From: Nitrospirota bacterium
GTDB lineage: Bacteria; Nitrospirota; JACRHJ01
Length of the DNA stretch: 64,000 nt
Direction of reading: 5' to 3'
NCBI GenBank assembly: GCA_021789495.1
Contig: JAJYJM010000001.1
Coordinates: 4,018 to 68,017 of the forward strand
Shown piece by piece: positions 2,739 to 50,789 of this stretch. The position numbers and the translations under genes are program-made. Positions within the stretch are counted from its first letter, which is position 1. Every line of letters starts with the position of its first letter. The notes under the pieces were generated by a model, which saw only the letters and a program-made list of their open reading frames with translations, did not search any database and had not been told where the DNA came from.

Positions 2739-2852
2739 TGGATTCCCGATTAAATCAATCGGGAATGACGAACAAAAGCAGACTGTCATTCACGCGAAAG
2801 CGGGAATCCAGTGACTTTCATAACTCACCTAAATCATTCGGGAATGACAGGT
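2739..2852. repeat. cluster of short repeat segments: hairpin attcccgat-N7-atcgggaat, a TGTCATTCACGCGAAAGCGGGAATCC copy and an inverted partial copy
   Basis: Read directly in the mqn intergenic spacer. Related to copies at 17488, 31177, 43466, 45811, 50238 and 50763. Confidence 0.6.
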
Positions 2853-2854
2853 AA

Positions 2855-3913
2855 ATGAAAGCACTGCTTAAAAAAGCCGCGTGCGGCAAGCGCCTGACAA
2901 AGGACGAGGGAATCTCCCTGTTCCTTGGAGCGGACCTGCTGTCCCTCGCCAGGACTGCGGACATGGTGCGGAAGCGCTTGCACCCGGAGGGCGTCGTCTC
3001 CTTCATCATAGACAGGAACATTAACTATACCAATGTCTGCGTAAACCAGTGCCGGTTCTGCGCTTTTTACAGAAGCGAGGACGCGCCGGAGGCATATCTC
3101 CTGCCGGATGACGTAATATTTCAGAAAATTAAAGAGACCGTTGAGGTCGGCGGCACGCAGATACTCATACAGGGCGGCCTGCACCCAAGGCTCGATATTT
3201 CATATTACAGGAGACTGTTCTCCGCTATAAAGAAACGTTTTACCATTAATATTCATGGGCTTTCGCCTGCGGAGATAAAGCATATTGCGAAGAATTCAGA
3301 GCTAACAATCAGAGAAACCTTGATTAATCTGAAGGAAGCCGGTCTGGATTCGATACCCGGCGGCGGCGCGGAGATACTGGTTGACAGCGTCCGGGGCGAG
3401 GTAAGCCCTAAGAAAATATCGTATGAGGGCTGGCGCTACGTGATGCTGACGGCCCAGGAACTCGGCTTTCCCACAACAGCGACGATGATGTTCGGAAGCG
3501 TGGAGAGGCCTGAGGACATTGTCGAGCATATCTTCCGTGTGCGGGAGATGCAGGACGCGCATCACGGCTTCACCGCATTTATCCCCTGGACGTATCAACC
3601 GGGCAATACCGAACTTGGCGGAAAAACGGCTACAAGCGTGGAATACCTCCGGGTACTCGCGTTCTCCCGGCTTTTCCTGGACAACGTCCCAAACTTGCAG
3701 GTCTCGTGGGTTACGCAGGGGGCGGCAATGGCCCAGGCGGCGCTTCGGTTCGGAGCGAACGATTTCGGGAGCACGATGCTCGAAGAGAACGTCGTGGCCG
3801 CAGCCGGAGTAAAAAACCGCTTAGACACTAGGGACATTGTATATCTAATTAAAAATGCAGGTTTCACCCCTGCGCAGCGCGATACCAAGTATTCGATTTT
3901 AAAGGTTTTTTAG
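2855..3913 (+). CDS. menaquinone (futalosine pathway) radical SAM enzyme, MqnC/MqnE family (second paralog)
   Basis: CVNQCRFCAF motif. Paralogous to the preceding ORF with the same conserved blocks. Confidence 0.8.
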   Translation: MKALLKKAACGKRLTKDEGISLFLGADLLSLARTADMVRKRLHPEGVVSFIIDRNINYTNVCVNQCRFCAFYRSEDAPEAYLLPDDVIFQKIKETVEVGGTQILIQGGLHPRLDISYYRRLFSAIKKRFTINIHGLSPAEIKHIAKNSELTIRETLINLKEAGLDSIPGGGAEILVDSVRGEVSPKKISYEGWRYVMLTAQELGFPTTATMMFGSVERPEDIVEHIFRVREMQDAHHGFTAFIPWTYQPGNTELGGKTATSVEYLRVLAFSRLFLDNVPNLQVSWVTQGAAMAQAALRFGANDFGSTMLEENVVAAAGVKNRLDTRDIVYLIKNAGFTPAQRDTKYSILKVF

Positions 3914-3994
3914 CCCACGTTTTAAATTCTCCTGTGTTTTCCTCGACTTAAGGCCCCAATCCACAATCTCTGTGGAAAAACTGTTGAAAACACT

Positions 3995-4035
3995 GTTGAA
4001 AATAAAACAATCCCTCTCCCGGCAACAGTCGGGAG
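3995..4035 (-). terminator. rho-independent terminator-like hairpin (ccctctcccg-N8-cgggagaggg followed by T-run on minus strand)
   Basis: Perfect 10 bp GC-rich stem. Downstream T-rich tract when read on the minus strand. Lies downstream of the minus-strand lipoprotein gene. Confidence 0.45.
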
Positions 4036-4146
4036 AGGGTGCTTAAAAACTAAGCATCTTTAAAAAATATAAGCAAATTTTAATCTGAAAACGGTTGTCA
4101 TTTAAATGACGGAACCATATAAAATATAAAATTTATCGTCAAGAAA

Positions 4147-4827
4147 TTAACGGCTTGAGATTTTCACCAGCAAATCCCGCAGGGACTGGTTGTCCAGGAT
4201 GCCCTTGTTTATGAGTTTTGCGAGCGCCTTGTCGAGCCGTTTTATCAGCTTGTTGCGGTCGGAAGTCGTCAGCTTGTTCTCCGACTGTGCCTTGTAATCC
4301 GACCAGAGCACGTCGCCGGTCTTTACATCCAGCACGTAAAGTTTAAACGAGCCTGTAACTTTGACATGGCTTCCGACGAGATTCCTCCTGGAATCCGCCA
4401 TGAAGTCCATAACCTTGGCGCCGAAGGCCACCTGTACGTCAGGATACTGCTCCATCAGCTCTTTCCGGACCTTCGCCGCGCTTTGCCTGTCGAGCGGAGT
4501 CGCAAGCCCGGTTCTGACCATTTTTACGCCGAGCCGGCCAAGTTCCGCCTCGATTGAATCCCGGAATACATCCGAGACCGTTTTATCGTTAATCTCGTAG
4601 CGCACGTTTCCGCTGTAATCCGTGCGCTTTATGATCTGTTTCGGATACGTTTGAGTCCCCTGCCTTGCGTCCACAACCGTCAGAAGCGTGCCGATTACGG
4701 GCTTCGGTATCATCGTTACCTGGCCCTGGTTCGCGTTATAGGATACGTTCAACCTTTCGCCGGCGCACCCGCTAAATACAAATACCAGTGAAATCAATGC
4801 AATATCCACTGCAACATTAAGTTTCAT
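4147..4827 (-). CDS. hypothetical lipoprotein
   Basis: Signal peptide with lipobox (VFSGC). No recognisable catalytic motifs. Confidence 0.5.
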   Translation of the reverse strand: MKLNVAVDIALISLVFVFSGCAGERLNVSYNANQGQVTMIPKPVIGTLLTVVDARQGTQTYPKQIIKRTDYSGNVRYEINDKTVSDVFRDSIEAELGRLGVKMVRTGLATPLDRQSAAKVRKELMEQYPDVQVAFGAKVMDFMADSRRNLVGSHVKVTGSFKLYVLDVKTGDVLWSDYKAQSENKLTTSDRNKLIKRLDKALAKLINKGILDNQSLRDLLVKISSR

Positions 4828-4851
4828 ATTAACTTTACCTCCTTTGGATGA

Positions 4852-5850
4852 TCAGCCTGCCTTAAGCTCCTCGACGAGAGAAACCGGCGCCGGGCGCACC
4901 TCGATTATCCTTGTTTCCTGCCCGGAAGATACTTCCATTGCCATGGAATCGAGCCCCCCGTTATCCGAATATCTTGCCGTAATCCTGGCCGCAAGTTCGA
5001 TATCGTCTTCGGTCGGGCTGCCTCTGAAAACGGACACTGGCCCCGGAACGTCCCTCGCCTTTATTATAACCTCTCTCTCTCCGGCGAGCGCAATGAGCTT
5101 CTCGTTGTCTCTTTCGTTCCTGCCGACATGGAGAGTCCCCGCCGGAAACCTGAAGAACCTGCCCACCGTAAGGATCTGTATGTCCCGCGCGTCCGCCGGC
5201 TCCTCTCTTTTATAGAGGAATTCCCGTATCCTCTTTGAGAGCGTCGGGTCTGTCAGTATGCAGCCCCCGGCGGGTGTCGCATAGTCTTTTATCCCGAACT
5301 TCTCGGCAAGCTCCATCTGTCCCCTGCGCGAGCGTCCGGAGAAACCGTACAACCTTTCCCGGTCGATAAACCCCTTTTCTTCAGGGATTGTCGGCGGCAT
5401 GAGCTTTGCGCAAAGCGGCCTTAAGAGATAGCCCTTCAGCCCGGAGTCCCGCTCGACTATACTCATGGCGTCGCGTCTCTGGGACATGGGCCTCTGGCCG
5501 AGCACCTCTCCGGAGATGATAAAGTCCGCACCCTCGTTGAGCATAAGGTTCCGGGCCTTTTTCATCATGAATATCTTGCAGTCGAGGCACGGGTTGAAGT
5601 TCTTTCCGTAGCCGTAGACTGGCCTTTTTACCATCTCCATGTATTCCGGCGAGACGTCGATTATGCGGACATTAAGGCCGTATTTTCCCTTGAAATCCCC
5701 GGCGGCCTGGGCCTCTTTTCCCTTGTTTTTGTAGCCGAAGAAGGGCGTAATGAAGTGTAGCGCCGTAACATCCACGCCCTGCTCCATTACGACCCTCGCC
5801 GCAAGCAGGCTGTCCAGGCCCCCGGAAAATAGAGAAAAAGCTTTATGCAT
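4852..5850 (-). CDS. ThiI-like PP-loop ATP pyrophosphatase (sulfurtransferase family, no THUMP domain)
   Basis: SGGLDS PP-loop. CLDCK...ISGEVLGQRPMSQ matches the ThiI CxxC/GESLGQVASQ region. Confidence 0.6.
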   Translation of the reverse strand: MHKAFSLFSGGLDSLLAARVVMEQGVDVTALHFITPFFGYKNKGKEAQAAGDFKGKYGLNVRIIDVSPEYMEMVKRPVYGYGKNFNPCLDCKIFMMKKARNLMLNEGADFIISGEVLGQRPMSQRRDAMSIVERDSGLKGYLLRPLCAKLMPPTIPEEKGFIDRERLYGFSGRSRRGQMELAEKFGIKDYATPAGGCILTDPTLSKRIREFLYKREEPADARDIQILTVGRFFRFPAGTLHVGRNERDNEKLIALAGEREVIIKARDVPGPVSVFRGSPTEDDIELAARITARYSDNGGLDSMAMEVSSGQETRIIEVRPAPVSLVEELKAG

Positions 5851-7132
5851 CGATTATTCCCGTCGTAGAAGCCCTGTCCACGCCAATTATTTTAACATCG
5901 ATTGGCCTGCCCGGGGCGGCATTTTTGCCGTGGAAGGCGACCCGTACGTAATTGTCCGTGAGTCCGGAGAATTTACCGTCCTTTTCCTCCGCGACGACCG
6001 TCATCGTCTTCCCGACGAGCGAGAACCGGAAGTCTATGTTCTTTTTATTACCCAGTTCCCGAAGTCTCTCGCTTCTCTCGCGTTTCGCGTCCCCCGGCAC
6101 CGGGTCTCCTATAGCATACGCCCTTGTGCCCTTTCTGGGGGAATAGCTGAAGACGTGGAGATAGTTTATCGGTGAGTCGTCTATCCGCCTCAGCGTCTCT
6201 TCAAATGCGTCTTCATCCTCGGCGGGATAGCCTACAATCACGTCCGCGCCTATGCACGCTCCGGGAGCGGCCTTTTCGATTTTTTTGACGACCGACAGAT
6301 AATCTTCCCACGTATATCCCCGGCCCATCGAGGCGAGGACTCTATCGCTTGCGCTCTGGAGCGGCACATGAAAATGGCGGCAGAGCTTTTCGTGTCTCGT
6401 CAGATCAATCAATGCCTCGTCTATCTCCATCGGCTCGACGGAACTTATGCGCAGCCTTCCAAGCCCCGGCCTTTCCAGAAGCTTCAAGACAAGGCCGGAA
6501 AGCCTTGCGTCGCCCGAATCCTTCCCGTATGCTCCGAGATGCACGCCGGTAAGCACAATCTCGTAATATCCCCTGGCTATGAGTTCGTCCGTCTTCGCCA
6601 GGACGTCTTCCGGCCTTGCGCTCCGGGAGCGGCCACGCGTATACGGGACGATGCAATACGAGCAGAAGGAGTCGCAGCCTTCCTGAACCTTCAGGAATGC
6701 GCGGGAACGCCCGCCAACTGCTTGAGCGAAGTGAGAATCCGCGGATTCAAAACAATTTGCAGGTGCCGGGTTTATCGGTATTGCGGGCGCAATTAATTGC
6801 GCCCCTACGATGTCCGGGATATTTCCCCGCCCGTCGTTCCCGACGACCACGTCTACGCCGCCGATTCCCTTTATAACGTCCGGGGCAACCTGGGCGTAGC
6901 ACCCGGCAACGAGCACCATGCCGCCCGGCTTCTTCGCCCTTACCGCCCGGCGTATCTCCCGGCGGCACTGGTAGTCGCTCTTGCCGGTAACGGTGCATGT
7001 GAAGATTACCTGCACGTCGGCCTCATTGGGCAACGCCGCAGCCTGTCCGCCGCGCGCCGAAAGGCTCTCGCCAAGCGCCGCTGCGTCGAACTGGTTTATC
7101 TTGCAGCCGAGGGTTTTTATGTGGAATTTCAT
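5843..7132 (-). CDS. MtaB-like tRNA methylthiotransferase (radical SAM MTTase)
   Basis: N-terminal TLGCKINQ UPF0004 motif. CDSFCSYC radical SAM motif. C-terminal TRAM-like region. Confidence 0.75.
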   Translation of the reverse strand: MKFHIKTLGCKINQFDAAALGESLSARGGQAAALPNEADVQVIFTCTVTGKSDYQCRREIRRAVRAKKPGGMVLVAGCYAQVAPDVIKGIGGVDVVVGNDGRGNIPDIVGAQLIAPAIPINPAPANCFESADSHFAQAVGGRSRAFLKVQEGCDSFCSYCIVPYTRGRSRSARPEDVLAKTDELIARGYYEIVLTGVHLGAYGKDSGDARLSGLVLKLLERPGLGRLRISSVEPMEIDEALIDLTRHEKLCRHFHVPLQSASDRVLASMGRGYTWEDYLSVVKKIEKAAPGACIGADVIVGYPAEDEDAFEETLRRIDDSPINYLHVFSYSPRKGTRAYAIGDPVPGDAKRERSERLRELGNKKNIDFRFSLVGKTMTVVAEEKDGKFSGLTDNYVRVAFHGKNAAPGRPIDVKIIGVDRASTTGIIDA

Positions 7133-8481
7133 ATTAGAACGCCTGCCAGCGAATGTTTTCTGCCTTCGATAACTTTTACCCGCACAAGCCTTCCGACAAG
7201 CTCCGGCGGGCCTTCAAAGTTCACAATCTTCCCCTGCCTTGTCTTGCCGGTGAGCCTGCCCATTTCTCCCGATTTGTCCGGGCCTTCGACCAGCGCCTCC
7301 TCGACAAGGCCGATGCGCGCGCTTATCTTCTCCTGCATTATTTTGTCCTGGAGTTCCAGAACCTTATACAGCCGCTCGTCCCTGACATCTTCCGGAAGAT
7401 GACCTGGTAATTTCAACGCGGCGGTATTAGGCCTGTTTGAATATTTGAAGGCGAATATGCCGTCAAAGCGAATATCCTCAAGTGCGCTTATCGTCGCCTG
7501 GAAGTCCTCTTCCGTCTCGCCCGGAAATCCTGCGATTATGTCCGTGGATACGGCGAGGTCAGGGACGGCGTCTCTCAGCGCGCCAAGCCTGTTCATGTAA
7601 TCCGTGAAGGTATATTTCCTGTTCATCCGGCCAAGCACACTGTCGGACGCGGACTGAAGCGGCAGGTGTATCGCGTTGCAGACCTTCGGGAGATTTGCCA
7701 TGGCGCCGATAAGGGAGCCGGAAAGGTCCTTCGGGTGCGAGGTTACGAAGCGGATGCGAAGAAGGCCGTCGATGGCATTTATTTCTTTTAGCAATTCCGG
7801 AAAGTTGCAGTTCTTTTCATTCATCCCCCTCTTAAGATAAGAGGGGGAAAGAGGGGGCGTTATGACAGGTTTTCCATACGAATTTACGTTCTGGCCAAGC
7901 AGCGTAACCTCCCGGCAACCGGACTTCACGAGTTCTTCTACCTCGCGGATAATGTCACCCGGTCTCCGGCTCCTCTCACGGCCCCGGACGAAAGGCACGA
8001 CGCAGTAGGTGCAGAAATTGTCGCAGCCGTACATTATGTTCACGAAGGCGGCCACCGCGCTCTCCCGCGAAGCGGGGATTGCGGTATGCTCGTAACCATC
8101 CGTGAAACGGGTGTCGATGGCGGTCCCGCCTGCGGATTCTTCAATCAGGGACGGCAATTTATCGATGTTCTGATTACCGAAAAGAATATCTATATACGGA
8201 GCCCGCCGCAGCATGGACTTTCCTTCCTGCTGGGCTATGCAGCCGGACACGGCGATTTTCATGGAGGGGTTCTGCTTCTTGAGTTCCCGGAGCTTGCCGA
8301 GCGCGCTGTAGAATTTCTGCTCCGCCTTTTCGCGGATGCTGCATGTATTGAGCAGGACGAGGCCCGCGTCTTCGAGCCTTTCGGATTCGCTGTAGCCCTC
8401 GGCTTTCAGGAGACCCGCCAGTTTCTCGGAGTCGTGCTCGTTCATCTGGCAGCCGAAGGTAAGGATTTTGAAGCTCTTCAT
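7129..8481 (-). CDS. miaB: tRNA-i6A37 methylthiotransferase MiaB
   Basis: FGCQMNEHDSE N-terminus. CDNFCTYC radical SAM motif. 450 aa MiaB-like length. Confidence 0.8.
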   Translation of the reverse strand: MKSFKILTFGCQMNEHDSEKLAGLLKAEGYSESERLEDAGLVLLNTCSIREKAEQKFYSALGKLRELKKQNPSMKIAVSGCIAQQEGKSMLRRAPYIDILFGNQNIDKLPSLIEESAGGTAIDTRFTDGYEHTAIPASRESAVAAFVNIMYGCDNFCTYCVVPFVRGRERSRRPGDIIREVEELVKSGCREVTLLGQNVNSYGKPVITPPLSPSYLKRGMNEKNCNFPELLKEINAIDGLLRIRFVTSHPKDLSGSLIGAMANLPKVCNAIHLPLQSASDSVLGRMNRKYTFTDYMNRLGALRDAVPDLAVSTDIIAGFPGETEEDFQATISALEDIRFDGIFAFKYSNRPNTAALKLPGHLPEDVRDERLYKVLELQDKIMQEKISARIGLVEEALVEGPDKSGEMGRLTGKTRQGKIVNFEGPPELVGRLVRVKVIEGRKHSLAGVLI

Positions 8482-8485
8482 CCTC

Positions 8486-8854: not shown

Positions 8855-8869
8855 ATTCTCCCGGATAAG

Positions 8870-11982: not shown

Positions 11983-12821
11983 ATTATATCGTCCGCATCG
12001 AATACAGGCCCGTCGTCGCAGACCTTCTTGTATACGCTGCTTCCGTTCCCGCCGTCGAGCACGCTTATCACGCAGCCCATGCACGCTCCGATACCGCACG
12101 CCATGTTCGATTCCATAGAGGTGTAATTCTTGATCCCGTATTTCTTCGCCATTGCCGCGACGCTTATGAGCATGGCCTTCGGCCCGCAGGAATAAACCGC
12201 CCAGCCGCAGACGGTAGACCGTCCGCAGGCGTCCTTGCGCATATGCTCGCGGATGTAATCGTCCAGCACATGGGTTATCAGGCCCTTACGTGGCAGGCTC
12301 CCGTCCTCGGTCGCCGTGAATGTCTCGATTCTCTTCCGCCGGAACTCGTCCGCGCCAAGGACGTATTCCCTGCTCCTGCCGCCGATGAACGCGGCGGCGG
12401 TAATGTCTTGTCGTTCGTCCGAGATATAATCCGCAAGGGCCATGAGCGGCGCAACGCCTATCCCGCCGCCGACTATCAGCGCGTGTTTTATGCCCGTAGG
12501 TATGGGAAAACCGTTTCCGAGCGGCCCCAGGACGTCGAGCTCGTCTCCGGGGATAAGCCGCGAGAGAAGAGCCGTGCCCCTTCCGGACTGCCTGTACAGA
12601 AAGCGCACGGAGTCATCCGTTAGCTTCCTGTGCAGGCTGAGCGGACGCCTCAGGAGCGGGTCGGTGGACTGCCCGACCTTCAACATGTAGAACTGGCCGG
12701 GGACGGCTGGCCGCCCGGCTGCCGGTCGACCGGCTTCATGCAGACCTATGCCTTCGGCCTCAATGTCCACGAGGAAATAGCCGGAGGTAAGCTCCTCGTT
12801 CTTCCTGATGCGGGCTATCAT
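11976..12821 (-). CDS. pyrK: dihydroorotate dehydrogenase electron transfer subunit
   Basis: FAD/NAD-binding fold. C-terminal CGIGACMGC 2Fe-2S cysteine cluster. Start moved to the internal Met (MIARIRKNE). Confidence 0.8.
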   Translation of the reverse strand: MIARIRKNEELTSGYFLVDIEAEGIGLHEAGRPAAGRPAVPGQFYMLKVGQSTDPLLRRPLSLHRKLTDDSVRFLYRQSGRGTALLSRLIPGDELDVLGPLGNGFPIPTGIKHALIVGGGIGVAPLMALADYISDERQDITAAAFIGGRSREYVLGADEFRRKRIETFTATEDGSLPRKGLITHVLDDYIREHMRKDACGRSTVCGWAVYSCGPKAMLISVAAMAKKYGIKNYTSMESNMACGIGACMGCVISVLDGGNGSSVYKKVCDDGPVFDADDIIW

Positions 12822-12823
12822 CG

Positions 12824-13303: not shown

Positions 13304-13331
13304 TGTTTTTCTTAATCTCTCCTTTCGGGGC

Positions 13332-16537
<3,206 letters not shown>

Positions 16538-16538
<1 letters not shown>

Positions 16539-17449
16539 TACACGTGCTCCTGGACCCAGCCCTCGTATAGTCCGTAACGCTCCATTACGTCCTGCGCGGC
16601 CAGGTATTCTTTCTCTGTTATCTTCCTGTCTATCTCCGGGTAATCAGCCGCCTCGTAAGTCGGGAAATACTGGTCCATTAAACTGACGGCAACCTGCGGT
16701 GATAGCTCTTTCGCTATAAATTTCAGAACCTCTTCCGTCCCGGAAATATTCTCCGGAAGGACGAGGTGACGGATGATAAGCCCGCGCGCAGCCATACCGT
16801 CGCCGTCCGTTTTAAGAAGTCCGACCTGCCTGAACATCTCCATTATTGCCGCCCGGTTATATGAGGCGTATTTCCTTGCCTTTGAATATTTCTTTGCAAG
16901 CTCGTCGTTTGAATACCTCATATCCGGGAGATATATGTCTACTACGCCGTCCAGGAGCCGAAGCGCCGGCAAGGATTCATACCCGCTCGTGTTATAGACG
17001 ATGGGGATATTGAACCCGCCTTCGACTGCGATAACCAGCGCCTCAAGAATCTGCGGCATGTAGTGCGTCGGCGTTACGAGGTTTATATTGTGCGCGCCTC
17101 GCCCCCGAAGTTCCAGCATAATCTTCGCAAGCCCGGTCGCGTCGTATTCTACGCCGTTTCCTTTGTGGCTGATGGGCCAGTTCTGGCAGTAGGCGCACTT
17201 TAATGTGCAGTGGCTGAAAAATATCGTGCCGGAGCCGCGAGCGCCGGATATTGCCGGCTCCTCGCCGAAGTGCAGGTTATACGATGCAGCCTTCGCCTTC
17301 GCGCCCGCGCCGCACAGCCCCACCTGCCCTTCCAGCCTGTTCACCCCGCAGTCGTTCGGGCACAGGTCGCATTTCTCAAGACGCGCCAGCGCGGATGATG
17401 CGCGGGAATTAAGTTCGTCGATAGAAATATTCAAACAATTTGCTTTCAT
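16538..17449 (-). CDS. radical SAM protein, PflX family (COG1313, PFL-activating-enzyme-like)
   Basis: N-terminal [12 protein letters not shown] cysteine motif followed by the [10 protein letters not shown] radical SAM motif. The listed N-terminal extension overlaps a repeat, so start is placed at MKANCLNI. Confidence 0.65.
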
Positions 17450-17487
17450 CAGTGATTTGTATGTTACCCGCCGTGAACATTGAAAGT

Positions 17488-17515
17488 CGCCGGGTTCCCG
17501 CTTTCGCGGGAATGA
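17488..17515 (-). repeat. copy of dispersed repeat (TGTCATTCCCGCGAAAGCGGGAACC)
   Basis: Read directly. Near-identical to the copy at 2788-2813. Confidence 0.6.
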
Positions 17516-17530
17516 CAATACAGATGGATC

Positions 17531-27600: not shown

Positions 27601-28095
27601 ATGACTCAATCACTCAAGCTCGAAGAATCTTTTTTGAAGATAGCCTCGGATGAGGCGCTTCCCTTAAGACTTACCCTCGCCAACCGCGAAAGGCTGACCG
27701 GCGTGGTAAAATCGGTCGGGAAATACGACCTGACGCTCGAATCCGAAGGGCGCGTAGTCGCGCTTATGAAAAAGGAAGTCTTCCAGGCGATTCCCCCGCG
27801 CGACATCCTCGATGAATCCTTCTTCAAAGCCCCGATGGACGAAGAGCAGTTTCCGCAGAAATCCCGCGTGCAGGACGAGTTCCTGAGCCGCTTTGTAAAG
27901 GAGCGGACTCTCGCCCTCCTGCGGCTCATAAACGGCGAAGAAATCCGGGGCGTCATAGACGGCTACGACGGCTTCACCATCTCCATAAGGACCGGCAGGG
28001 GCCAGGCTATGATATACAAGCACGGTATATGCAGCATCAGCCCCGGTTACAGGCGGCGGCAGACCGGCAGCCCGGCTTCAGTCGAGGGAAAATGA
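27601..28095 (+). CDS. Hfq-like protein with two tandem Sm domains
   Basis: Two repeats match the Hfq pattern (QSL..FLN..R.E..PV.I.L.NG..L.G.I.SFD.F.ILL.....Q.MVYKHAIS). The second carries the MIYKHGI Sm2 motif. Confidence 0.6.
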   Translation: MTQSLKLEESFLKIASDEALPLRLTLANRERLTGVVKSVGKYDLTLESEGRVVALMKKEVFQAIPPRDILDESFFKAPMDEEQFPQKSRVQDEFLSRFVKERTLALLRLINGEEIRGVIDGYDGFTISIRTGRGQAMIYKHGICSISPGYRRRQTGSPASVEGK

Positions 28096-28493
28096 ACGGC
28101 AATCCGTTTGACGATACGCTCGAAGAGTTTTATTCCAGGGGAACGGAGGCCGCTTTTGTCCTGAAAGACGGCTCCCGGCTCACAGGCAGGATAAAGCGGT
28201 TCGACGGCTATGTCGTTTTCCTTGAAAACGGCGCCGAGATGATGGTATATCGCCATTCAATCCTGAAACTCTCCGAAGCCGCGGCGCAGGATCGCGCCGA
28301 GACTCAGACGCGCCCGTTATCCGAACCCAAGACGGCTCCAGCGCCGAAATCCCGCCCGAAAACCCTTCCGCGCCCCAAAAGACCGCCCAGAAAGGAACAG
28401 TCTTTTTCCGTCCAGCAGAAGGAGCCGGGGGCTGTTTCCAGGATGGGGGAAGAGCTCCTGAAGTGGCTTAAAAACCAGAAGGGCAATGAGTAA
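28092..28493 (+). CDS. Hfq-like Sm domain protein with basic Pro/Lys-rich C-terminal tail
   Basis: A third Hfq-like domain (LTGRIKRFDGYVVFLENGAEMMVYRHSI). ATGA stop/start overlap with the preceding ORF. Low-complexity tail. Confidence 0.6.
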   Translation: MNGNPFDDTLEEFYSRGTEAAFVLKDGSRLTGRIKRFDGYVVFLENGAEMMVYRHSILKLSEAAAQDRAETQTRPLSEPKTAPAPKSRPKTLPRPKRPPRKEQSFSVQQKEPGAVSRMGEELLKWLKNQKGNE

Positions 28494-31176: not shown

Positions 31177-31202
31177 GTCATTCTGAACGAAGTGAAGAAT
31201 CC
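31177..31202 (+). repeat. copy of dispersed repeat (GTCATTCTGAACGAAGTGAAGAATCC)
   Basis: Read directly. Overlaps the annotated GTG start of the following gene. Confidence 0.6.
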
Positions 31203-38737: not shown

Positions 38738-38740
38738 TTT

Positions 38741-39214: not shown

Positions 39215-39331
39215 GCGTAATGCTCCGGTAAACTATGAAATATACCACGAGGATATATTCCATGACAATAAAAATAATACCAGAGAGGCGCGCTTCCGGC
39301 AAGGGAACGGGTAAAATACCGGCATGTTTTC

Positions 39332-39360
39332 TTGACTAACGCCTTAAATTAAAATATCAT
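39332..39360 (+). promoter_or_regulatory. sigma70-type promoter upstream of queD
   Basis: -35 TTGACT, 17 nt spacer, -10 TATCAT. Confidence 0.45.
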
Positions 39361-39400
39361 TAGAAGATTACCCGCACTGAAAAATACCGAGGGACATGAA

Positions 39401-42384: not shown

Positions 42385-42397
42385 AATAAACGGCCCC

Positions 42398-43177
42398 TTA
42401 TAGTTGGTGCGTGTTCTTCATAAAAATGCCGACGCCTATATACGTGAACATGGTTATGGCGAAACCGAGTATCGAAAGCCAGGCGACCCCCCTGCCGCGG
42501 AGCCTCTTTACGTAATATGCGTGCAGGAACCCGGCATAGAATATCCAGATAAGAAACGACCACATCTCCTTCACCTTCCACAGCCACCACGTCCCCCAGG
42601 CGAGATACGCCCAGATGCCGCCCACGACCATCGAGATTGTGAACAGGACGTAGCCGTAATAGGCCGTGCGGAAGACAAGTTCCTCAAGCCGCCTTTCGGC
42701 CTCGGCCTTCGAGACGAGATACAGCGCCGCGCCCGCGAAAGACGCCCCGAAGAACCCGTATCCTACGAAGGCCGAACCAACGTGCGTCGTGAACATCCAT
42801 GTATCGAGCGCGGGATAAAGCGGCGTGATTTGGCTGGGCGATATGCTCACCATGAACATCACCAGCGCGGCCAGCGGCATGAGGAAATACCCGATACGGA
42901 ATTCCCTGTAGCGTATCCTGACGAACCAGTATACGAAGCCTATCGACCAGGCGAACGAGGCGAGGGACTCGTACCTGTTGGCCATAGGGGCATGGCCGGA
43001 TTCAATCGTCCTGACGGCGAGCGAGAGGGTTATGGCCGCAAAATATAAAAGCGTCAGCGCCTCGGCGGCAATGAGCACGGGCTTTTTTGAAACCGCCGGC
43101 CTGAGCAGGAACACTGCTCCCGCGCCTATGGAAAGCCAGAGAGCGGCCACGCGCGCAACCGACTCGATGTTATGCAA
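42398..43177 (-). CDS. ccsA: cytochrome c biogenesis protein CcsA/ResC (heme exporter)
   Basis: Trp-rich WAYLAWGTWWLW motif and flanking His residues. Confidence 0.85.
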   Translation of the reverse strand: MHNIESVARVAALWLSIGAGAVFLLRPAVSKKPVLIAAEALTLLYFAAITLSLAVRTIESGHAPMANRYESLASFAWSIGFVYWFVRIRYREFRIGYFLMPLAALVMFMVSISPSQITPLYPALDTWMFTTHVGSAFVGYGFFGASFAGAALYLVSKAEAERRLEELVFRTAYYGYVLFTISMVVGGIWAYLAWGTWWLWKVKEMWSFLIWIFYAGFLHAYYVKRLRGRGVAWLSILGFAITMFTYIGVGIFMKNTHQL

Positions 43178-43179
43178 TT

Positions 43180-43440
43180 TTACGGGTGCCTTTCAGGCGC
43201 GGGCTGCTGGGGAATGAACGAATAATTCTCCAGTTCGTCCTCGTATTTCCTGCGCCAGACGGAGTGCTCTTTGAGCCAGATGGAATAGTCCTTCATATTG
43301 GCTATGCCGTGCGCCTTCATAAAACCCGTTTCGGTAATATCTATTTTCGCCGGGCATGTCTTCGGGGTATCTCCCCAGGAAGAGTGCATGAAAAGGCCAA
43401 GTGAGAGGATGATAACGGTGAATTTCAGGAAATTTTTCAT
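43180..43440 (-). CDS. small secreted hypothetical protein
   Basis: Signal peptide. 86 aa. No motifs. Confidence 0.35.
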   Translation of the reverse strand: MKNFLKFTVIILSLGLFMHSSWGDTPKTCPAKIDITETGFMKAHGIANMKDYSIWLKEHSVWRRKYEDELENYSFIPQQPAPERHP

Positions 43441-43534
43441 AACTTCCTCAGTCTTATGGATTTACCGGAATGACAGGCTTTCTTGTATTGGAATATTAAT
43501 ACAGGCCGGTAAATTATTCAAGAGGAATTACGGA

Positions 43535-45748
43535 TTAAGCCTTGCGCAGGCGAAGTGAGTTGCTCACGACGGACACGGAAGAGAGGGCCATGGCGGCTGC
43601 GGCCATTACAGGCTTTAGGAGAATCCCGAAGGACGGGTACAGGACTCCGGCGGCCATCGGAATGCCGACGGTATTATAGAAAAACGCCCAAAAAAGGTTC
43701 TGCTTTATCGTCCTGAGGGTCTTCCGGCTTATCTCAAGGGCCTCCGCCGCGCGTGTAAGCTCAGGCTTTATAAGCATTATGTCGGATGCCTCGATTGCGG
43801 CGTCCGTCCCTGTCCCCACGGCGATGCCTATGTCGGCCCTCGCAAGCGCGGGCGCGTCGTTTATGCCGTCCCCGACCATCGCAACAATCCTGCCCTTTGC
43901 CTGAAGCTCGGATATTACCTTCTCCTTCCTGTCCGGCAGCACCCCCCATATCACATTTTCGACGCCTACCTTCCTGGCCACAGCGCGCGCCGCAAGCTCG
44001 GTGTCCCCGGTAAGCATTATGACTTCAAGGCCAAGCTCCTTGAGCCTCCGTATGCCTTCTACGGAGCCTTCCTTTACACCGTCGGCAATCGCTATTATGC
44101 CTGCCGGCTTTTTGTCCCTTGCAACGAATATCGATGTATAACCTTCCTGCGCGTAAAGCGCCCCGGCATGGGTGAACTGCGCCGTATCCACGCCGTTTTC
44201 GGCCATGAGACGGGCATTTCCTATAAGCACATCTTCATCCCCAATCCTTGCCCGAGCCCCGTAGCCCGGCAGGGCCTCGAAACCGGACGCCGGAGATATT
44301 ACGAGGTTTTCCTCCCTCGCCTTTTCCGTAACGGCAAGGGCGACGGGATGCTCGGAGTAGTTCTCTACCGATGCGGCAAGGGCGAGGAAATCCTCACCGC
44401 CGTCCCCCAGTTCTTTGAGCGCCATAACCCTGGGCCTGCCTTCCGTCACCGTCCCGGTCTTGTCCAGGACAATCGTATCCGCCTTGGCGAACCGCTCTAA
44501 TACATCACCGCCTCGGAATATTATGCCCTTTTCGGCGGCCCTGCCCGTCCCGACCATTATAGCCGTCGGCGTGGCAAGACCCATCGCGCACGGACATGCT
44601 ATTATAAGCACTGCGATAAAGGCCAGCAGGGCGAACGTAAAGCCCTCCCCTGCGGCGAGCCATACCCCGAAGGCCACGAACGCCACTACTATAACCGACG
44701 GGACGAAATACGCCGCCACCTTGTCCGCGAGCCTCTGAATCGGCGCCTTCGCGCCCTGTGCCTCTTCAACGAGCTTTATTATCCCGGCCAGAACCGTGTC
44801 TTTTCCAACCCTTTCGGCCTTAAACTTAAAGCTGCCCGTGAGGTTCAGCGTCCCGCCGAAAACCGTCTCGCCCTCGCCCTTTTCCACGGGCAGGCTCTCG
44901 CCCGTGAGCATGGACTCGTCCAGCGAGGAAAACCCTGAGATTACGGCCCCGTCTACGGGCACTTTCTCTCCTGGCCGGACGATTACCACGTCTCCCGGCA
45001 TAACGTCTTCCGCCAGTATTTCCATCTCCTGCCCGTCCCGGACTACCCTCGCCGTCCTGGGGGAAAGCTTCATAAGCCGCTTCACGGCCTCGGACGCCTT
45101 GCCCTTCGAGCGGGCTTCGAGGAACTTCCCAAGCAGGATGAGGGTTATAATCATCGCGGAGGTGTCGTAATAGACGGCGCTGCCGAAACCGGCGAAGACG
45201 CCGGGGAAGAAGGTGATGACTGCACTGTAGAAATAGGCCGTGGACGTGCCCGTGGCAATAAGGACGTCCATGTTGGCGCTCCCGTGGGAAAGCGTCCCCC
45301 ACGCGCCCTTGTAGAACCGCTGGCCCGCCCAGAACTGCACGGGCGTCGCAAGCGCGAAGAGTATGAAATCGAGCACCCTGTGAGAAACCGGCATGGATAC
45401 GCCGTGGAACGAGGACGCCATTATAACGGAGCTTGCGACTATGCTGAAAATCACCTTTATCCTGAGATCCCGAAGCTCCTCTTCCTCCCTGGCCTCCTTT
45501 ATCTCCGGGGCGGCCTCTTCCTTATCAAGCACCTGATATCCGGTCTTTATTACCGCTTCCTTTAGCCCGGCCTCGGAAATCTCCGCCGGCACGTATTCCA
45601 CGCGCGCCGTCTCGGACGCGAGGTTTACGTTCGCGGAGATTACCCCCGGCCGCTTCTTCAGCGCGCGCTCGACCGCCGCAGAGCACGAGGCGCAGGTCAT
45701 TCCGCCGATATTCAGGGTGCTTACAGCCGTTTTGTTGTTATCCGACAT
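43535..45748 (-). CDS. copA: copper-translocating P-type ATPase
   Basis: N-terminal HMA domain GMTCASC. CPC transmembrane motif. DKTGTVT phosphorylation site. GDGINDAP. Confidence 0.95.
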
Positions 45749-45810
45749 GGCTTATCACAGTAAAAAAGGGGCTCTCTCACGCCCCTAGGCTTACAGCAAA
45801 CATTACAAAC

Positions 45811-45903
45811 TGTCATTGCGAGCTTCAGCGAAGCAATCTCGGTTTTTAAGAGAATCAGTAAATTCCGGGATTGCCGCGTCGCCTTCGGTTCCTCGCAATG
45901 ACA
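45811..45903. repeat. two inverted copies of the dispersed repeat bounded by a perfect 12 bp terminal inverted repeat (TGTCATTGCGAG ... CTCGCAATGACA)
   Basis: Read directly. Located between the copA start and the YtxH-like gene. Confidence 0.65.
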
Positions 45904-45917
45904 AAATCTGTCAACGC

Positions 45918-46232
45918 TTACGCGTGGCTATGGAGGCGCGCCTTCTCCTCTTCCATGGCCTTTTTCCCGGCCTCTACCGCGCCCTGTATGGCCGGTTTTT
46001 TCTCTTCAAGGTATTCCCGTCCGCGGCTTAAGGTATCCGCAATCTTAAGCTTTGCGCTCTGGCCCACACTCCAGACCTTGTCCTTCGCGTCTCCGGCGAA
46101 CTCGCTGATTTTTTCCCTTGTCTCGCGCCCGGACTGCGGTGCCGTCAGAAGCGCTATGCCGGCGCCGACGATGCCGCCGACAAGGAACGAAATAACCATC
46201 GAACCGGTGGAGAAGTTCTTTTCTTCGTACAT
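45918..46232 (-). CDS. YtxH domain protein
   Basis: GGIVGAGIALLTAPQSGRETR motif. Confidence 0.75.
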   Translation of the reverse strand: MYEEKNFSTGSMVISFLVGGIVGAGIALLTAPQSGRETREKISEFAGDAKDKVWSVGQSAKLKIADTLSRGREYLEEKKPAIQGAVEAGKKAMEEEKARLHSHA

Positions 46233-46646
46233 TTAAGCTACCTCCTTCTTTTTCCATGACCTGAGGTTTTCGACCAATGTCCGCACCCCGGCCTTTATCC
46301 CGGCGAGGTACGCCGCCGCATCGATTAATGGACCCCGTATGTTCTCGTTTATTATGGCATTTATGCCATTGACCGTGCCGGTTACCGCATCGACCGTCCC
46401 CTCGACTTTTTCAACCCCGGTCTTTGCCGCCGCAACTATTCCGTTTACCTCATCGATCGTATTCCTCACAGAGCCGACCAGCGGCATTACTTCCACGTTT
46501 ATCAGCGTCTTTACGGAACCGTTCAGGTCGTTCAAGGTGGATTCAATGGATTTCAGCGTGCTTCTAAGCTGTATCATGACCGGAATCAGCGTCAGGACCG
46601 CAACTGCAAAGGCAATGGCTATTATCAGAACCGCCGCAGGAAGCAT
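46233..46646 (-). CDS. DUF948 domain protein
   Basis: N-terminal TM helix (LIIAIAFAVAVLTLI) followed by coiled-coil. Usually paired with YtxH. Confidence 0.7.
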   Translation of the reverse strand: MLPAAVLIIAIAFAVAVLTLIPVMIQLRSTLKSIESTLNDLNGSVKTLINVEVMPLVGSVRNTIDEVNGIVAAAKTGVEKVEGTVDAVTGTVNGINAIINENIRGPLIDAAAYLAGIKAGVRTLVENLRSWKKKEVA

Positions 46647-46826
46647 TTCAAAATCCTCCTTTAGTTTAAATATACCTCAAGCCGGCCTTATTAACAAGAC
46701 GGCCGGTGAGATTCCCGGGCAACGACATCCGATACCTCGCTCCCGTCCACCGGGATTAAGATATATTCATACATAGTAAATTTATATCAGAGAGGCTGGA
46801 AGCAGTCAAAGGGAAAAGGCGTGTAT

Positions 46827-47675
46827 TCAGGGCGATACGCCCTGTTTTGCGCTGGTGAACAGAAGACCCCTGACAACCTCGGCACGTTTGCCGAGCGGCC
46901 CCATATCCTTGCCGTTGAGCCGGGCGCGCACTCCGCCCGCGTTTCCGAGCGTCAGGACTATCTGTTTGTTCGCATTTATTATCCGGGCGTTGCCCTTTTT
47001 CAGGATACCGCTCATCCCGCTTGCATTGTCGGCCCTGTAGGAGTAGTAGCTGTCCTCGACGGCGAAAAGCTTGAGAGTGAGCGGGCCGATTGCCTGAAAG
47101 GGTTTCCGGGCGGTATGGGATACGGTCGTGCGGTTTTTGAAGGACGTTACGGCCTTCATTGCCGGGGCCGGAGGCTTTTGCGCCACGGGCGCCGGGGCCT
47201 GGCGAACGGGCGGCAAGGGGAGCTTTGGAGCCTGCGCCTTCATGGGCCTTTTCGGAACGAACAGGAGGGTTATTCCCGTGAGGGCCGCGCCTGCGAGAAG
47301 CCCCGCAATGATTATCAGGTATACCGGGTGTTTTTTCCCCGTCGGTCTTTCCGCCTGGTGTTTACCGCGGGATATACTTATAAGCGAGGGCTTGGGGCGG
47401 TGTTGAACATCCCGGTCATCCGGCGCGGGCGCCTCCCTCGGCGGGAGATTCAGCTCCCTGTAGCGCGCCAGTATATCTTTGACGTTCAGGCCCAGTTCCT
47501 TTGAATAAGTCCGCAGGAAACCGACAACGAAGACGTCGCCGGGGATGGCCGAGTAATCGCCGTCCTCCAGGGCCTTGAGGAATGTATGGCTTATCCTCGT
47601 CCTCTCGGCTATCTCGGTAAGGGAAAGCCCTTTGGCCTCCCTCGCCACCTTTAGTTCTTCACCGATGTTTGGCAT
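46827..47675 (-). CDS. rodZ: RodZ-like cytoskeleton protein (HTH XRE plus DUF4115)
   Basis: N-terminal HTH (LSLTEIAERTRISHTFLKALE), TM helix, Pro/Ala-rich linker, C-terminal DUF4115-like domain. Confidence 0.75.
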   Translation of the reverse strand: MPNIGEELKVAREAKGLSLTEIAERTRISHTFLKALEDGDYSAIPGDVFVVGFLRTYSKELGLNVKDILARYRELNLPPREAPAPDDRDVQHRPKPSLISISRGKHQAERPTGKKHPVYLIIIAGLLAGAALTGITLLFVPKRPMKAQAPKLPLPPVRQAPAPVAQKPPAPAMKAVTSFKNRTTVSHTARKPFQAIGPLTLKLFAVEDSYYSYRADNASGMSGILKKGNARIINANKQIVLTLGNAGGVRARLNGKDMGPLGKRAEVVRGLLFTSAKQGVSP

Positions 47676-47676
47676 T

Positions 47677-48429
47677 TTACTTTAATAGATTCAGATACTT
47701 GTCAGCCTGCGCCGAAAGCCTGGAGTTCGGAGCCAGGCTTTTTGCCTTCTCCAGGCTCTCCGCGGCCTTGGCGTTCCTGCCCTGCTGGAAATACACCAGG
47801 CCGAGCTCGTAATAAGCCTGGGCGCTCTTTGGGGCAGCATCGATAGTCTTCCTGAAGAACCTCTCCGCGTTCTTCATGTCGCCAAGTTTTTTATACTCGT
47901 CCGCAAGGCCGTACATCGCGTCGACATTGTAGGGATTCGACAGCAGCGCCTTGCGGAAGGATTTGGCCGCCTTCTTGTGTTTTCCCATGGAGTCGTAGAC
48001 GTTTCCGATGTTGACAAGCGCCTGGTCTTTTGTGGGATAAACCGGATTGTTTATAGCCTTTTCAAGCTCCGTTATCGCATCGGAATAATCTTTCTTCCGC
48101 GCGTACGCAAGCCCAAGGTTGTTATGGGCCTCGCCGTAGTTCGGGTCGAGCGATATGGTCGTCTTGAACTCCGATATCGCTTTGTCGAAGCTCCCTTCGT
48201 TGTAATAGATTATTCCCGCCGCGAAATGCGCGCCGAGATTATCCGGGTTCTCCTGAATCGCCATATTGAATTCGTATAGCGCGGATTCGTTGTTTCCGGA
48301 CTGCATCCGATTCAGTCCGTTCTTATAGTGGGATATGGATTCCTGGACTGGAGTCGGGCCGCTTGCGCAGGCGGAGAGAAGCAGAGCGGAGGTCAGGAGG
48401 GTCAGGATAATAAATATCGGCTTTTTCAT
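47677..48429 (-). CDS. TPR-repeat lipoprotein
   Basis: Lipobox LSACA. At least five TPR units. Confidence 0.75.
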   Translation of the reverse strand: MKKPIFIILTLLTSALLLSACASGPTPVQESISHYKNGLNRMQSGNNESALYEFNMAIQENPDNLGAHFAAGIIYYNEGSFDKAISEFKTTISLDPNYGEAHNNLGLAYARKKDYSDAITELEKAINNPVYPTKDQALVNIGNVYDSMGKHKKAAKSFRKALLSNPYNVDAMYGLADEYKKLGDMKNAERFFRKTIDAAPKSAQAYYELGLVYFQQGRNAKAAESLEKAKSLAPNSRLSAQADKYLNLLK

Positions 48430-49337
48430 GCTATGTCCTCGAAAAATGTTATCTTCCTAAACTCCCTGTAGCGCCCTTCGATTTCCTTGTAGTCGAGACT
48501 TTTCATCCCGTTCAGGCTGAAGTCCTCCACGTTGAAGGACGCCATGACGCTCCCGAATATTATCGCCTGCCGAAGCGACGCCTCGTCGAAATTCTGCACG
48601 TTGTCCAGGTATCCCATGAACCCGCCCGCGAAGCTGTCCCCGGCGCCGGTCGGGTCGAATACGGCCTCAAGGGGATATGCCGGGGCGGAGAATATCCCGC
48701 CGGAATTGAACATTACGGAGCCGTATTCGCCCCGCTTTACGATAAGGGTGCCGGGCCCCATCGCCTGCACGGCCCGCGCGGCCTTGACGAGGTTCGGCTC
48801 CCCGGCGAGTTCCCTCGCCTCGGCCTCGTTTATAAGGAGTATGTCCACCTCGGCCAGCGTCTTTACAAGCTCGTCCTTTTTTCCGCCTATCCAGAAGTTC
48901 ATGGTATCGCAGGCGACGAGCTTCGGCCTGTTTATCTGGTGCAGGACTTCCCTCTGGAGCACAGGGTCGATATTGGCGAGGAACACGACATCGGATGCGC
49001 GGTATGCGTCCGGGATATTCGGCCTGAAGCTCTCGAACACATTCAACTGCGTATCGAGCGTCCTGGCTTCGTTCAAGTCGTAGCCGTACTCGCCCTTCCA
49101 CCGGAAGGTCCGTCCCTCGGATTTCTGGAGGCCGGAGACGTCGATCCTGCGGTTTTTAAGGAACTGGACGTGCTTGTCCGGAAAATCATCCCCGACGACC
49201 GCGACAAGCTTCACGTCCGTGAAGTAGCTTGCCGCCGTGGAGAAATATGTCGCGGAACCGCCCAGTACTTCATCGGCGGCTCCAAACGGTGTCTTGACAC
49301 TGTCGAACGCAATGGAACCCACGACCAGCAAGCTCAA
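48426..49337 (-). CDS. PfkB family carbohydrate/nucleoside kinase
   Basis: DPTGAGDSFAGG motif near the C-terminus. N-terminal GG dipeptide region. Confidence 0.8.
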   Translation of the reverse strand: MSLLVVGSIAFDSVKTPFGAADEVLGGSATYFSTAASYFTDVKLVAVVGDDFPDKHVQFLKNRRIDVSGLQKSEGRTFRWKGEYGYDLNEARTLDTQLNVFESFRPNIPDAYRASDVVFLANIDPVLQREVLHQINRPKLVACDTMNFWIGGKKDELVKTLAEVDILLINEAEARELAGEPNLVKAARAVQAMGPGTLIVKRGEYGSVMFNSGGIFSAPAYPLEAVFDPTGAGDSFAGGFMGYLDNVQNFDEASLRQAIIFGSVMASFNVEDFSLNGMKSLDYKEIEGRYREFRKITFFEDIA

Positions 49338-49340
49338 TCG

Positions 49341-50213
49341 CTATACCTCCTGCCCGACGTATTTCCCGATGATTGCGTCGAGTTTCCTTTTGGTTTCCTC
49401 CGGTATAAGCTCAGCCGAGGTCATTATGGCGTATTTCAGGGAATCCCCGCACGCGCACGAACGCGAAACCGGCATGGCCTCCACGGCTATCTGAATAATC
49501 TTCTTGGCTGTCTCCACGTTCTTTCTGAGGATGGCGATTACGGCCTCGATTGTAACGTCTTCCTCGGTCTCGTGCCAGCAGTCGTAGTCCGTCGCAAGCG
49601 CAAGCGTCGCATAGCATATCTCCGCCTCGCGCGCAAGCTTCGCCTCCGTTACGTTAGTCATGCCGATTACGTCCACTCCCCAGCCGCGGTATATCCTCGA
49701 TTCGCCCCTGGTGGAGAACTGCGGGCCTTCCATGCAGATATACGTCCCGCCCCTATGCATCTTCGCGCCGGCCTTAACTCCCGCGTCATAAAGCGCGCCC
49801 GCAAGCTCCGGGCAGACCGGGTCTGCAAATCCGACGTGCGCCACGACCCCGCCGCCGAAGAACGTGCTGACGCGGTTCTTAGTCTGGTCGTAGAACTGGT
49901 CCGGGACGACAATCTCGCCGGGCCGGATTTCCTCCTTCATGCTCCCGACGGCGGAGACGGATATTATACGCTCGACGCCGAGTTTCTTCATGGCGTAGAT
50001 GTTCGCCCGGTAGTTTATCTCCGAGGGCGTGAACCTGTGCCCCCGGCCATGTCGCGGGAGAAACGCGAGCCTCCTGCCTTCAAGGGTGCCCAGGACGAAC
50101 TCGTCCGACGGCTCCCCGAACGGTGTATCCACCCGGACGGACGTAACGTATTTAAGGCCCTCCATGTCGTAGAGACCGCTTCCGCCTATGACTCCTATCT
50201 CCGCTTCGGACAA
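49341..50213 (-). CDS. mtnP: S-methyl-5'-thioadenosine phosphorylase
   Basis: [12 protein letters not shown]-terminus. PNP/MTAP family blocks. Confidence 0.85.
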
Positions 50214-50762
50214 TTCAAGCTCCTTTTTTCTTTGTCATTCGGAAAATGCCAATAGAACTAAAGAATTATAAGGCATTGGAACTGTTTTGTAAAGGGATTT
50301 CGGGCGGACTAAAAGCAGGGGCTTAAGTTTATTGCGTCCGGCATTCCCGTGAAATCGGGAACCCGGCGGCTTTTCTTACCCTCGCCCTTTCATGGGAGAG
50401 GATGGCCGAAGGCCGGGAGAGGGTTCGCCGTTTTCCTGATTTGTAATTGCCAGATTCATCGGGCGGCGTCTGGAAATTACGATGCGATTTAATTATAATA
50501 TCGAGCCACGCACCAAGAGTAAACCTAATCGGTCGGGAAAGTTCGTTCTCAGGATAATTTACTATGAGCTACGATAACTCCCCGCCAACTTTGGATTATT
50601 TTTATAAATTCCCGAATTTTTCGGCGGAATCGGAAACGGGCTGAAAACGGGCCGTTTTCGGGCATTTTCGGGGCAAAAAGGAGGGGCGGAGAAGGGGGCG
50701 ATTTGGCGGGTTTTCTATGGATATTCCATTTATTTTACAACCGGTTAAACAATAAAACGCTG

Positions 50763-50789
50763 TCATTCCGAGCGAAGCGAAGAATCCGA
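50763..50789 (+). repeat. copy of dispersed repeat (TGTCATTCCGAGCGAAGCGAAGAATCC)
   Basis: Read directly. Lies within the 700 bp ORF-free region. A partial copy is also at 50238-50255. Confidence 0.6.

Follow-up and report, generated by a model that had tools for sequence, protein, structure and literature searches.

Dispersed hairpin repeats in a Nitrospirota genome probably belong to the Ssn-related motifs and show recent turnover

Ssn is a single-domain GIY-YIG nuclease of ~94 amino acids that binds its DNA hairpin only as single-stranded DNA (ssDNA) and only on the strand carrying a GTC head, and it cuts ssDNA a few nucleotides 5' of this head, as is known for four homologs (PMC11893778). 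Chenal et al. (Nat Commun 2025, PMC11893778) defined the 28-nt NTS consensus CGTCATTCCCGCGMAVGCGGGAATCYRG and the broader Ssn-related motifs (SRM). The ssn genes are typically bracketed by SRM, as in the NTS-ssnA-NTS layout of Neisseria (PMC11893778). The RNA version of the hairpin is not bound by Neisseria SsnA, and a phage recombinase has been reported to target dRS3, the core of NTS (PMC11893778). Here we analyzed a family of dispersed repeats in 64,000 nt of DNA from a Nitrospirota bacterium (GCA_021789495.1, contig JAJYJM010000001.1, positions 4,018-68,017 of the forward strand), hereafter the window. We conclude that these repeats are probably SRM, the family that includes the NTS/dRS3 repeats of Neisseria (probability about 0.82), because they match it in sequence, form the hairpin structure, and occur, in every subtype, beside ssn-like genes elsewhere. 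The SRM/NTS-Ssn system itself is already known; what is added here is a Nitrospirota host with several subtypes.

The repeats are a varied group of strand-oriented hairpins, in which a head GTCATT(C/G)C and a tail G(G/C)AATCC enclose a stem-loop whose interior varies (Table 1). The window contains seven full copies, one copy with a mutated head and three fragments. In all seven full copies the palindrome is immediately preceded by the non-palindromic GTC head and immediately followed by a C. Head and tail of these copies read GTC-ATT(C/G)..(G/C)AAT-C, with the exception of 17490-17517, which ends in AAC-C. The initial annotation had described one 27-mer with a GTCATT head, a GAATCC tail and a common GCGAAG core. 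The dispersed family is real, and the proposed ends hold in the looser form of a head GTCATT(C/G), a stem-loop and a tail (G/C)AATC. However, the 27-mer itself occurs once within 3 mismatches (50761-50787), and the GCGAAG core, seen in no more than 4 of the 7 full copies, is not common to the family; in the rest, GCGAAAGCG or a loop rich in A and T takes its place. The loci had been placed correctly within a few bases, but 43466-43478 belongs to a 17-nt partial copy, what had been listed at 50238-50255 is merely a 7-nt head remnant, and the copy with the mutated head GGCATT was overlooked. As had been noted, both orientations occur (5 of 11 copies lie in the sense of the flanking genes) and all copies are intergenic.

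The patterns GTCATTC..GAAYC and GTCATTG..CAATC, which were composed after the copies had been seen, gave 7 matches against ~0.7 in dinucleotide shuffles. GTCATT alone is at chance level (24 vs 23.9). An independent repeat finder returned 2784-2820/17481-17517 (37 nt, 89%) and 17483-17514/50342-50373 (32 nt, 91%) as the best non-coding repeats, and the latter pair revealed the mutated-head copy. A generic detector for GTC followed by a stem of at least 5 bp and C was too noisy to be used (28 matches vs 16 in shuffles). Rfam gave nothing at gathering thresholds in the whole window and nothing at E <= 1 in 50200-50950. At least three subtypes coexist within the 64 kb. We distinguish the NTS-type (GTCATTCCCGCGAAAGCGGGAAYCCRG with a common 3' extension YGRCTTT), the long-loop type, the GA-type (GTCATTCYGARCGAAGYGAAGAATCC, the GAGCGAAGCGAAG subtype) and the GCGAG-type (GTCATTGCGAG...GCAATC).

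Table 1. Copies and fragments of the repeat family in the window.
Feature	Position	Strand	Sequence	Remarks
Full copy, long-loop type	2741-2769	-	GTCATTCCCGATTGATTTAATCGGGAATCC	10-bp perfect stem, long AT-rich loop; ssDNA fold -9.4 kcal/mol, z -3.7; 1 substitution from SRM pattern
NTS-type copy with 3' extension	2784-2820 (full copy 2785-2810)	+	TGTCATTCACGCGAAAGCGGGAATCCAGTGACTTTCA	Fold z -3.4; 1 substitution from SRM pattern
Truncated copy, head and 5' half of long-loop type	2828-2848	-	GTCATTCCCGAATGATTTAGG	Head-out arrangement with 2784-2820
NTS-type copy with extension	17481-17517 (full copy 17490-17517)	-	TGTCATTCCCGCGAAAGCGGGAACCCGGCGACTTTCA	Between carA and PflX-like radical-SAM gene; fold z -2.8; exact SRM pattern match
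GA-type copy	31177-31202	+	GTCATTCTGAACGAAGTGAAGAATCC	Between prfB and ogg
Partial copy, 17 nt	43458-43474	-	GTCATTCCGGTAAATCC	Between Cu-ATPase gene and 86-aa gene
Head-out inverted doublet, GCGAG-type, 91 nt	45812-45902			Arms ~28 nt apart
Left arm of doublet	45812-45839	+	GTCATTGCGAGCTTCAGCGAAGCAATCT	
Right arm of doublet	45868-45902	-	GTCATTGCGAGGAACCGAAGGCGACGCGGCAATCC	
Head remnant, 7 nt	50234-50240	+	GTCATTC	5' leader of MTAP-like gene
Degenerate NTS-type copy	50339-50373	+	GGCATTCCCGTGAAATCGGGAACCCGGCGGCTTT	Head mutated to GGCATT; 2 substitutions from SRM pattern
GA-type copy, 27-mer of the initial annotation	50761-50787 (26-mer core 50762-50787)	+	TGTCATTCCGAGCGAAGCGAAGAATCC	

The link to the Ssn literature came from a search on the Neisseria dRS3 palindrome. 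Two NTS-type copies (2784-2811 and 17490-17517) differ from the 28-nt NTS consensus at 2 positions and a third copy of the family at 4, while random 38-mers of the window have at least 10 mismatches. No window copy comes within 1 mismatch of CGTCATTCCCGCGMAVGCGGGAATCYRG, which is the strict definition of NTS. We also compared the copies with the published SRM search pattern, HGTCWYN(0-2)YYVSBRHN(0-5)WNVSBRGN(0-2)RNCYNB, for which the background has a median of 5-6 substitutions and 5% of random 38-mers reach 3. The NTS-type and long-loop copies lie between zero and two substitutions from it (Table 1). This pattern was rejected as the sole test of membership, since it finds one copy in the window vs 0.4 expected. 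By sequence alone, the NTS-type copies are placed in the SRM/NTS family, but the 27-mer of the initial annotation is not. Shared with SRM/NTS (Chenal et al. 2025, PMC11893778) are the head (C/T)GTCAT, the stem ATTCC..GGAAT, the trailing C, the YRG tail and the dispersed, intergenic location, and elsewhere the same sequences bracket a ~94-aa GIY-YIG gene with heads outward. The window differs in its Nitrospirota host, known from a metagenome, in having at least three subtypes within 64 kb, and in lacking ssn. Moreover, its GAGCGAAGCGAAG and GCGAG subtypes are not captured by the published pattern; their stem is interrupted by what seems to be an invariant tandem G-A/G-A. The dRS3/NIME repeats of Neisseria (ATTCCC-N8-GGGAAT) share the palindrome core with the NTS-type copies (ATTCCCGCGAAAGCGGGAA), and the clustering of copies in intergenic mosaics, as at 2741-2848 of the window, is a further likeness. 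Unlike them, the window copies end in ATTCAC.. or ..GGGAAC or have a 13-nt loop, and there are no RS blocks and no Correia-type partners. No window copy fits the strict dRS3 form; ATTCACGCGAAAGCGGGAAT, ATTCCCGCGAAAGCGGGAAC and ATTCCC-N13-GGGAAT were seen instead.

The hairpin structure was assessed by ssDNA folding and by covariation. NTS-type and long-loop copies are more stable than their shuffles (z -2.8 to -3.7), and the doublet 45812-45902 folds as one long ssDNA hairpin (-23.2 kcal/mol, z -4.6). For the GA-type, we gathered 32 distinct variants by Hamming distance. The hairpin ...(((((..((...))..))))).. was paired in 92% of cells among these variants. Double-sided changes numbered 13 against 3.5 in shuffles, a value reached by 0 of 500 shuffles, and position 6/22 showed three Watson-Crick pair types. 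Covariation thus supports a hairpin of the GAGCGAAGCGAAG (GA) subtype. Invariant in all 32 variants are G1, T2, C3, A4 and C25. G9 and A19 are likewise invariant, and A10 and G18 are conserved in at least 90%. This suggests that G9, A10, G18 and A19 form tandem G-A pairs, a kind of pairing for which the energy model gives no bonus. The loops contain GCGAAGC (50762, 45812) or GCGAAAGC (2785, 17516). The oligonucleotides d(GCGAAGC) and d(GCGAAAGC) are reported to be extraordinarily stable DNA mini-hairpins in the work of Hirao and colleagues. This likeness is one of physical chemistry and assigns the repeats to no family, but it gives a lead as to why the single strand would fold robustly.

Outside the window, the same repeats lie beside ssn-like genes. 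Locus L058 carries a 103-aa open reading frame with a Pfam GIY-YIG domain (PF01541, E 1e-16), which is bracketed with heads outward by the GA-type GTCATCCTGAGCGAAGCGAAGGATC, and further copies, including the exact 26-mer core of the window copy at 50762, follow the gene. A search with this protein yielded 80 JGI metagenome loci that were kept for a survey of flanks. A GTCAT head was found within 130 nt upstream of the ssn-like gene in 64 of 80 loci and an inverted head at or after its 3' end in 63 of 80, where ~7% is expected by chance in each case; 56 loci had heads on both sides. The flanks of these loci cover every subtype of the window (GTCATCCTGAACGAAGTGAAGGATC, GTCATTCCCGCGAAGGCGGGAATCCA, GTCATTGCGAGCGAAGCGAAGCAATCT and GTCATTGCGAGGAGCTTAGCGACGTGGCAATCTC), and GTCATCCTGAACGAAGTGAAGGATC, which flanks many ssn-like genes, is near-identical to the copy 31177-31202. 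In a Thermodesulfovibrionales (Nitrospirota) metagenome-assembled genome (L177), ssn is embedded in at least 7 copies. There, the gene is surrounded by a regular array in which two SRM subtypes alternate, and at 3850-4480 it interrupts a two-component operon, between histidine kinase and response regulator. On an IMG/VR contig (L178), GTCATTCCCGCGAAAGCGGGAATCCAGT lies on each side of the ssn-like gene. Ssn-like GIY-YIG genes are carried by 25 IMG/VR contigs classed as viral (L178-L202), and 11 of them have SRM heads on both sides. The flanked proteins are single-domain, 90-100 aa in length, and have retained the Tyr, Tyr and Glu whose counterparts were mutated in SsnA of Neisseria. Their nearest PDB relatives are UPF0213 proteins, a weak match (E 3e-7), and NCBIfam has no specific family for the Ssn-like protein.

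The exact GA-type 26-mer was sought in one genome per species. Confinement of the copies to the window would have spoken against the initial annotation; instead, 83 stretches carry the 26-mer, and their genomes represent at least 12 phyla, against a chance expectation of ~3e-4 by our own calculation. Its hosts include Verrucomicrobiota, Acidobacteriota, Planctomycetota, Chloroflexota, Bacillota, Patescibacteria, Nitrospirota, Nitrospinota, Bacteroidota, Chlorobiota, Spirochaetota and Proteobacteria. The flanks share no common sequence except T or C at position -1; therefore, the 26-mer represents neither one conserved locus nor a contaminant. The likeness of a Chlorobaculum locus (L063) to the window is confined to the 26 nt of the repeat. 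The exact 26-mer was absent from the viral contigs of IMG/VR. A head-out partner lies within 200 nt of 39 of the 82 foreign 26-mer copies vs ~11% by chance, while other arrangements of pairs are at chance level. The doublets of other genomes have a median length of 86 nt, which the 91-nt window doublet fits.

Close relatives of the host allowed a comparison of the same spacers. ENA metagenome contigs are 99.3-99.8% identical to the window, and its Cu-ATPase and LepA have their closest named homologs in Nitrospirota metagenome-assembled genomes. Turnover was read from syntenic loci (L090, L091, L092, L094, L095 and L096), whose proteins are 91-96% identical to those of the window. The 91-nt doublet is absent as a whole unit from L090, L091 and L092. 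About 60 nt carrying the copy 17490-17517 is absent from L095 and L096, where the carA-pflX spacer is 18 nt, and L094 has a different, longer insert in this spacer (~16890-16995). The copy at 31177 has a diverged orthologous copy in L094 and is absent from L095 and L096. The partial copy 43458-43474 is kept in L091 and L092, and L090 has a different, complete doublet there (~12240-12330). At 50234, where the window has only the 7-nt head, L091 has a complete head-out doublet and L090 a long variant. The degenerate copy 50339-50373 has an orthologous copy in L091 with an intact GTCGTT head. The copies lie in short spacers inside otherwise conserved housekeeping operons. Presence or absence and replacement at five sites among close relatives indicate that the turnover is recent: copies have been gained, lost, truncated and replaced since the divergence from these relatives. 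Because relatives carry different SRM subtypes at spacers occupied in the window, the ATPase/86-aa and carA/pflX spacers are recurrent landing or retention sites.

Several observations weigh against the assignment to SRM. The GA-type and GCGAG-type copies are 3-4 substitutions away from the SRM pattern, within its background, and they have no significant stability under nearest-neighbour DNA parameters. The flanked proteins are putative members of cd10448, judged by the Pfam GIY-YIG match, size, the Tyr/Tyr/Glu residues and the weak UPF0213 matches. No ssn homolog was found in the 64-kb window by tblastn (E > 0.7) or by a simple GIY-YIG regular expression, nor in ~90 kb of the relatives' DNA. 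An ssn gene lies within 8 kb of the exact 26-mer in only 2 of 83 foreign loci. Finally, the spacers of filled and empty sites have diverged too far for an alignment, so that neither exact junctions nor target-site duplications could be delimited. A MITE of a DDE transposon would have terminal inverted repeats together with such duplications; of these, the doublets show inverted arms.

Hairpins in operon spacers may also work in the transcript, where they could be intrinsic terminators or serve mRNA stabilization or processing. All copies do lie in transcribed-looking spacers between co-directional genes, and the doublet 45812-45902 precedes the ytxH terminator in the 3' region of that gene. 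However, in the sense of the genes no stem is followed by a T-run, and the terminator-like sites called in 43000-51500 include none of the copies. Some copies point with the genes and others against them, an RNA hairpin would not explain why the asymmetric GTC head and the trailing C are conserved, and an Rfam match is lacking. Together with the failure of Neisseria SsnA to bind the RNA version (PMC11893778), this makes an RNA-level role very improbable as the explanation of the family.

The initial annotation had called the repeats REP/MITE-like, and this description is apt for dispersed intergenic hairpins with inverted doublets. Classical REP/REPIN elements are mobilized by RAYT of the IS200/IS605 Y1 HUH family. 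With that system the repeats share inverted doublets of 60-95 nt that fold into a single long hairpin, occupancy that varies between strains, and a nuclease gene that is present in one copy and has the repeats on either side. The head, however, is GTCAT and not GTAG/CTAC, the gene bracketed elsewhere encodes a GIY-YIG nuclease and not a Y1 transposase, and no transposase domain was found among the window genes examined. We therefore regard membership in the classical REP/REPIN group as highly implausible. No GIY-YIG enzyme is known to form covalent intermediates of the Y1 transposition type; thus, the mode of spread, if any, must differ from that of REPINs.

It is equally implausible that the repeats exist as integration targets of site-specific recombinases, such as those of IS110/IS1111-type elements or filamentous phages. 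In favor of such targets, dRS3 is reported to be used in this way in Neisseria (PMC11893778), and sites in the Nitrospirota lineage were repeatedly re-occupied by different inserts. However, neither the window nor the loci of relatives showed a recombinase, IS or prophage at a copy or close to one, and the replacements are other copies of the same family, not a larger element. Recombinase targeting would be a secondary use, possible as such, that leaves unexplained how the family arose. A role as operators bound by a palindrome-specific transcription factor, which the palindromes near gene starts at 2836-2848, 17490-17517 and 50234 might bring to mind, can practically be dismissed, as palindrome interiors differ completely among copies while the asymmetric flanks are conserved, the flanking genes are unrelated (menaquinone-type radical SAM, carA, prfB/ogg, Cu-ATPase, MTAP), the same 26-mer stands beside unrelated genes in at least 12 phyla, and sites are missing in close relatives although the operons are conserved.

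Taking the repeats as SRM, each copy consists of the GTC head, a stem opening with ATT(C/G)C and closing with G(G/C)AAT around a variable interior, and a C directly after the stem. Copies exist singly or as head-out inverted doublets, whose geometry is that of an SRM-ssn-SRM unit without the gene. A presumed cognate Ssn would be encoded elsewhere in the host genome and would cut the window sites. The doublets might spread as non-autonomous units, and an effect on the host would concern ssDNA transactions (uptake, recombination, replication), not RNA. Going further, we tentatively propose, as a combined idea that we ourselves find somewhat doubtful, that the head-out doublets of 60-95 nt might be non-autonomous mobile units, an Ssn counterpart of REPINs mobilized in trans by the GIY-YIG nuclease, and that the GAGCGAAGCGAAG subtype might be a separate Ssn recognition class missed by the published motif. 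If this is true, the 26-nt identity of the GAGCGAAGCGAAG subtype in at least 12 phyla would mean frequent inter-phylum transfer or a very strong constraint by the nuclease.

The repeats also affect gene starts. The initial annotation had attributed spurious N-terminal extensions of PflX and Ogg to them. For the PflX-like gene this holds, as the extension to TTG 17518 is spurious and the true ATG 17449 is the start in the relatives. For Ogg it is doubtful. Both repeat-bearing lineages, the window and L094, have lost the ancestral ATG of ogg (MEINELLRHYK in L095), and the first in-frame start is GTG 31192, within the repeat. Judged from these sequences, the repeat insertion may now supply the start codon of ogg, and it seems to have taken over from the original one.

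The surroundings of the copies showed further features. The three-copy cluster 2741-2848 lies exactly between tandem paralogous radical-SAM genes (1641-2720 and 2855-3913), which have a CofH/MqnC C-terminal domain and are 72% identical over a stretch of 90 nt. At 45767-45786 (- strand) there is a terminator-like hairpin followed by a T-run, which the relatives have kept. The doublet 45812-45902 is placed between the ytxH stop codon and this hairpin, so it should be part of the 3' untranslated region of ytxH. Between the kdsC-like and MTAP-like genes is an intergenic region of ~700 nt (50255-50929), in which blocks at ~50375-50430 and ~50590-50700 are conserved in L090 and L091, and which has a strong promoter-like site, TTTACA-17-TATAAT, at 50293-50265 (- strand). 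This region could contain an undescribed small RNA or leader. The first of these blocks is G/C-rich and palindromic (CCCTCGCCCTTTCATGGGAGAGGATGGCCGAAGGCCGGGAGAGGGTTCGCC, 50375-50430); it lies directly against the degenerate SRM copy and might represent another type of repeat. Two tandem Hfq-domain genes (~162-164 and 132-137 aa), longer than typical Hfq, lie beside a Fur-family gene in L094 (7428-8317), L095 (7422-8301) and L096 (7040-7922), syntenic to window ~27601-28493. No tRNA genes were found in the window.

Beyond the known system, the value of the Nitrospirota repeats lies in a very widespread GA-type outside the published pattern, in the covariation for its hairpin, and in recent turnover with the doublet as unit. 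For annotation, they are a reminder that such hairpins can give rise to wrong or changed start sites of genes, the extended PflX-like gene being an example. The close Nitrospirota relatives provide a natural data set, in which the same spacers are empty, filled, truncated or refilled with another subtype. Together with strain-resolved genomes and a purified enzyme, it makes testable the question raised by the 2025 paper, whether SRM-ssn-SRM is or was a mobile element.

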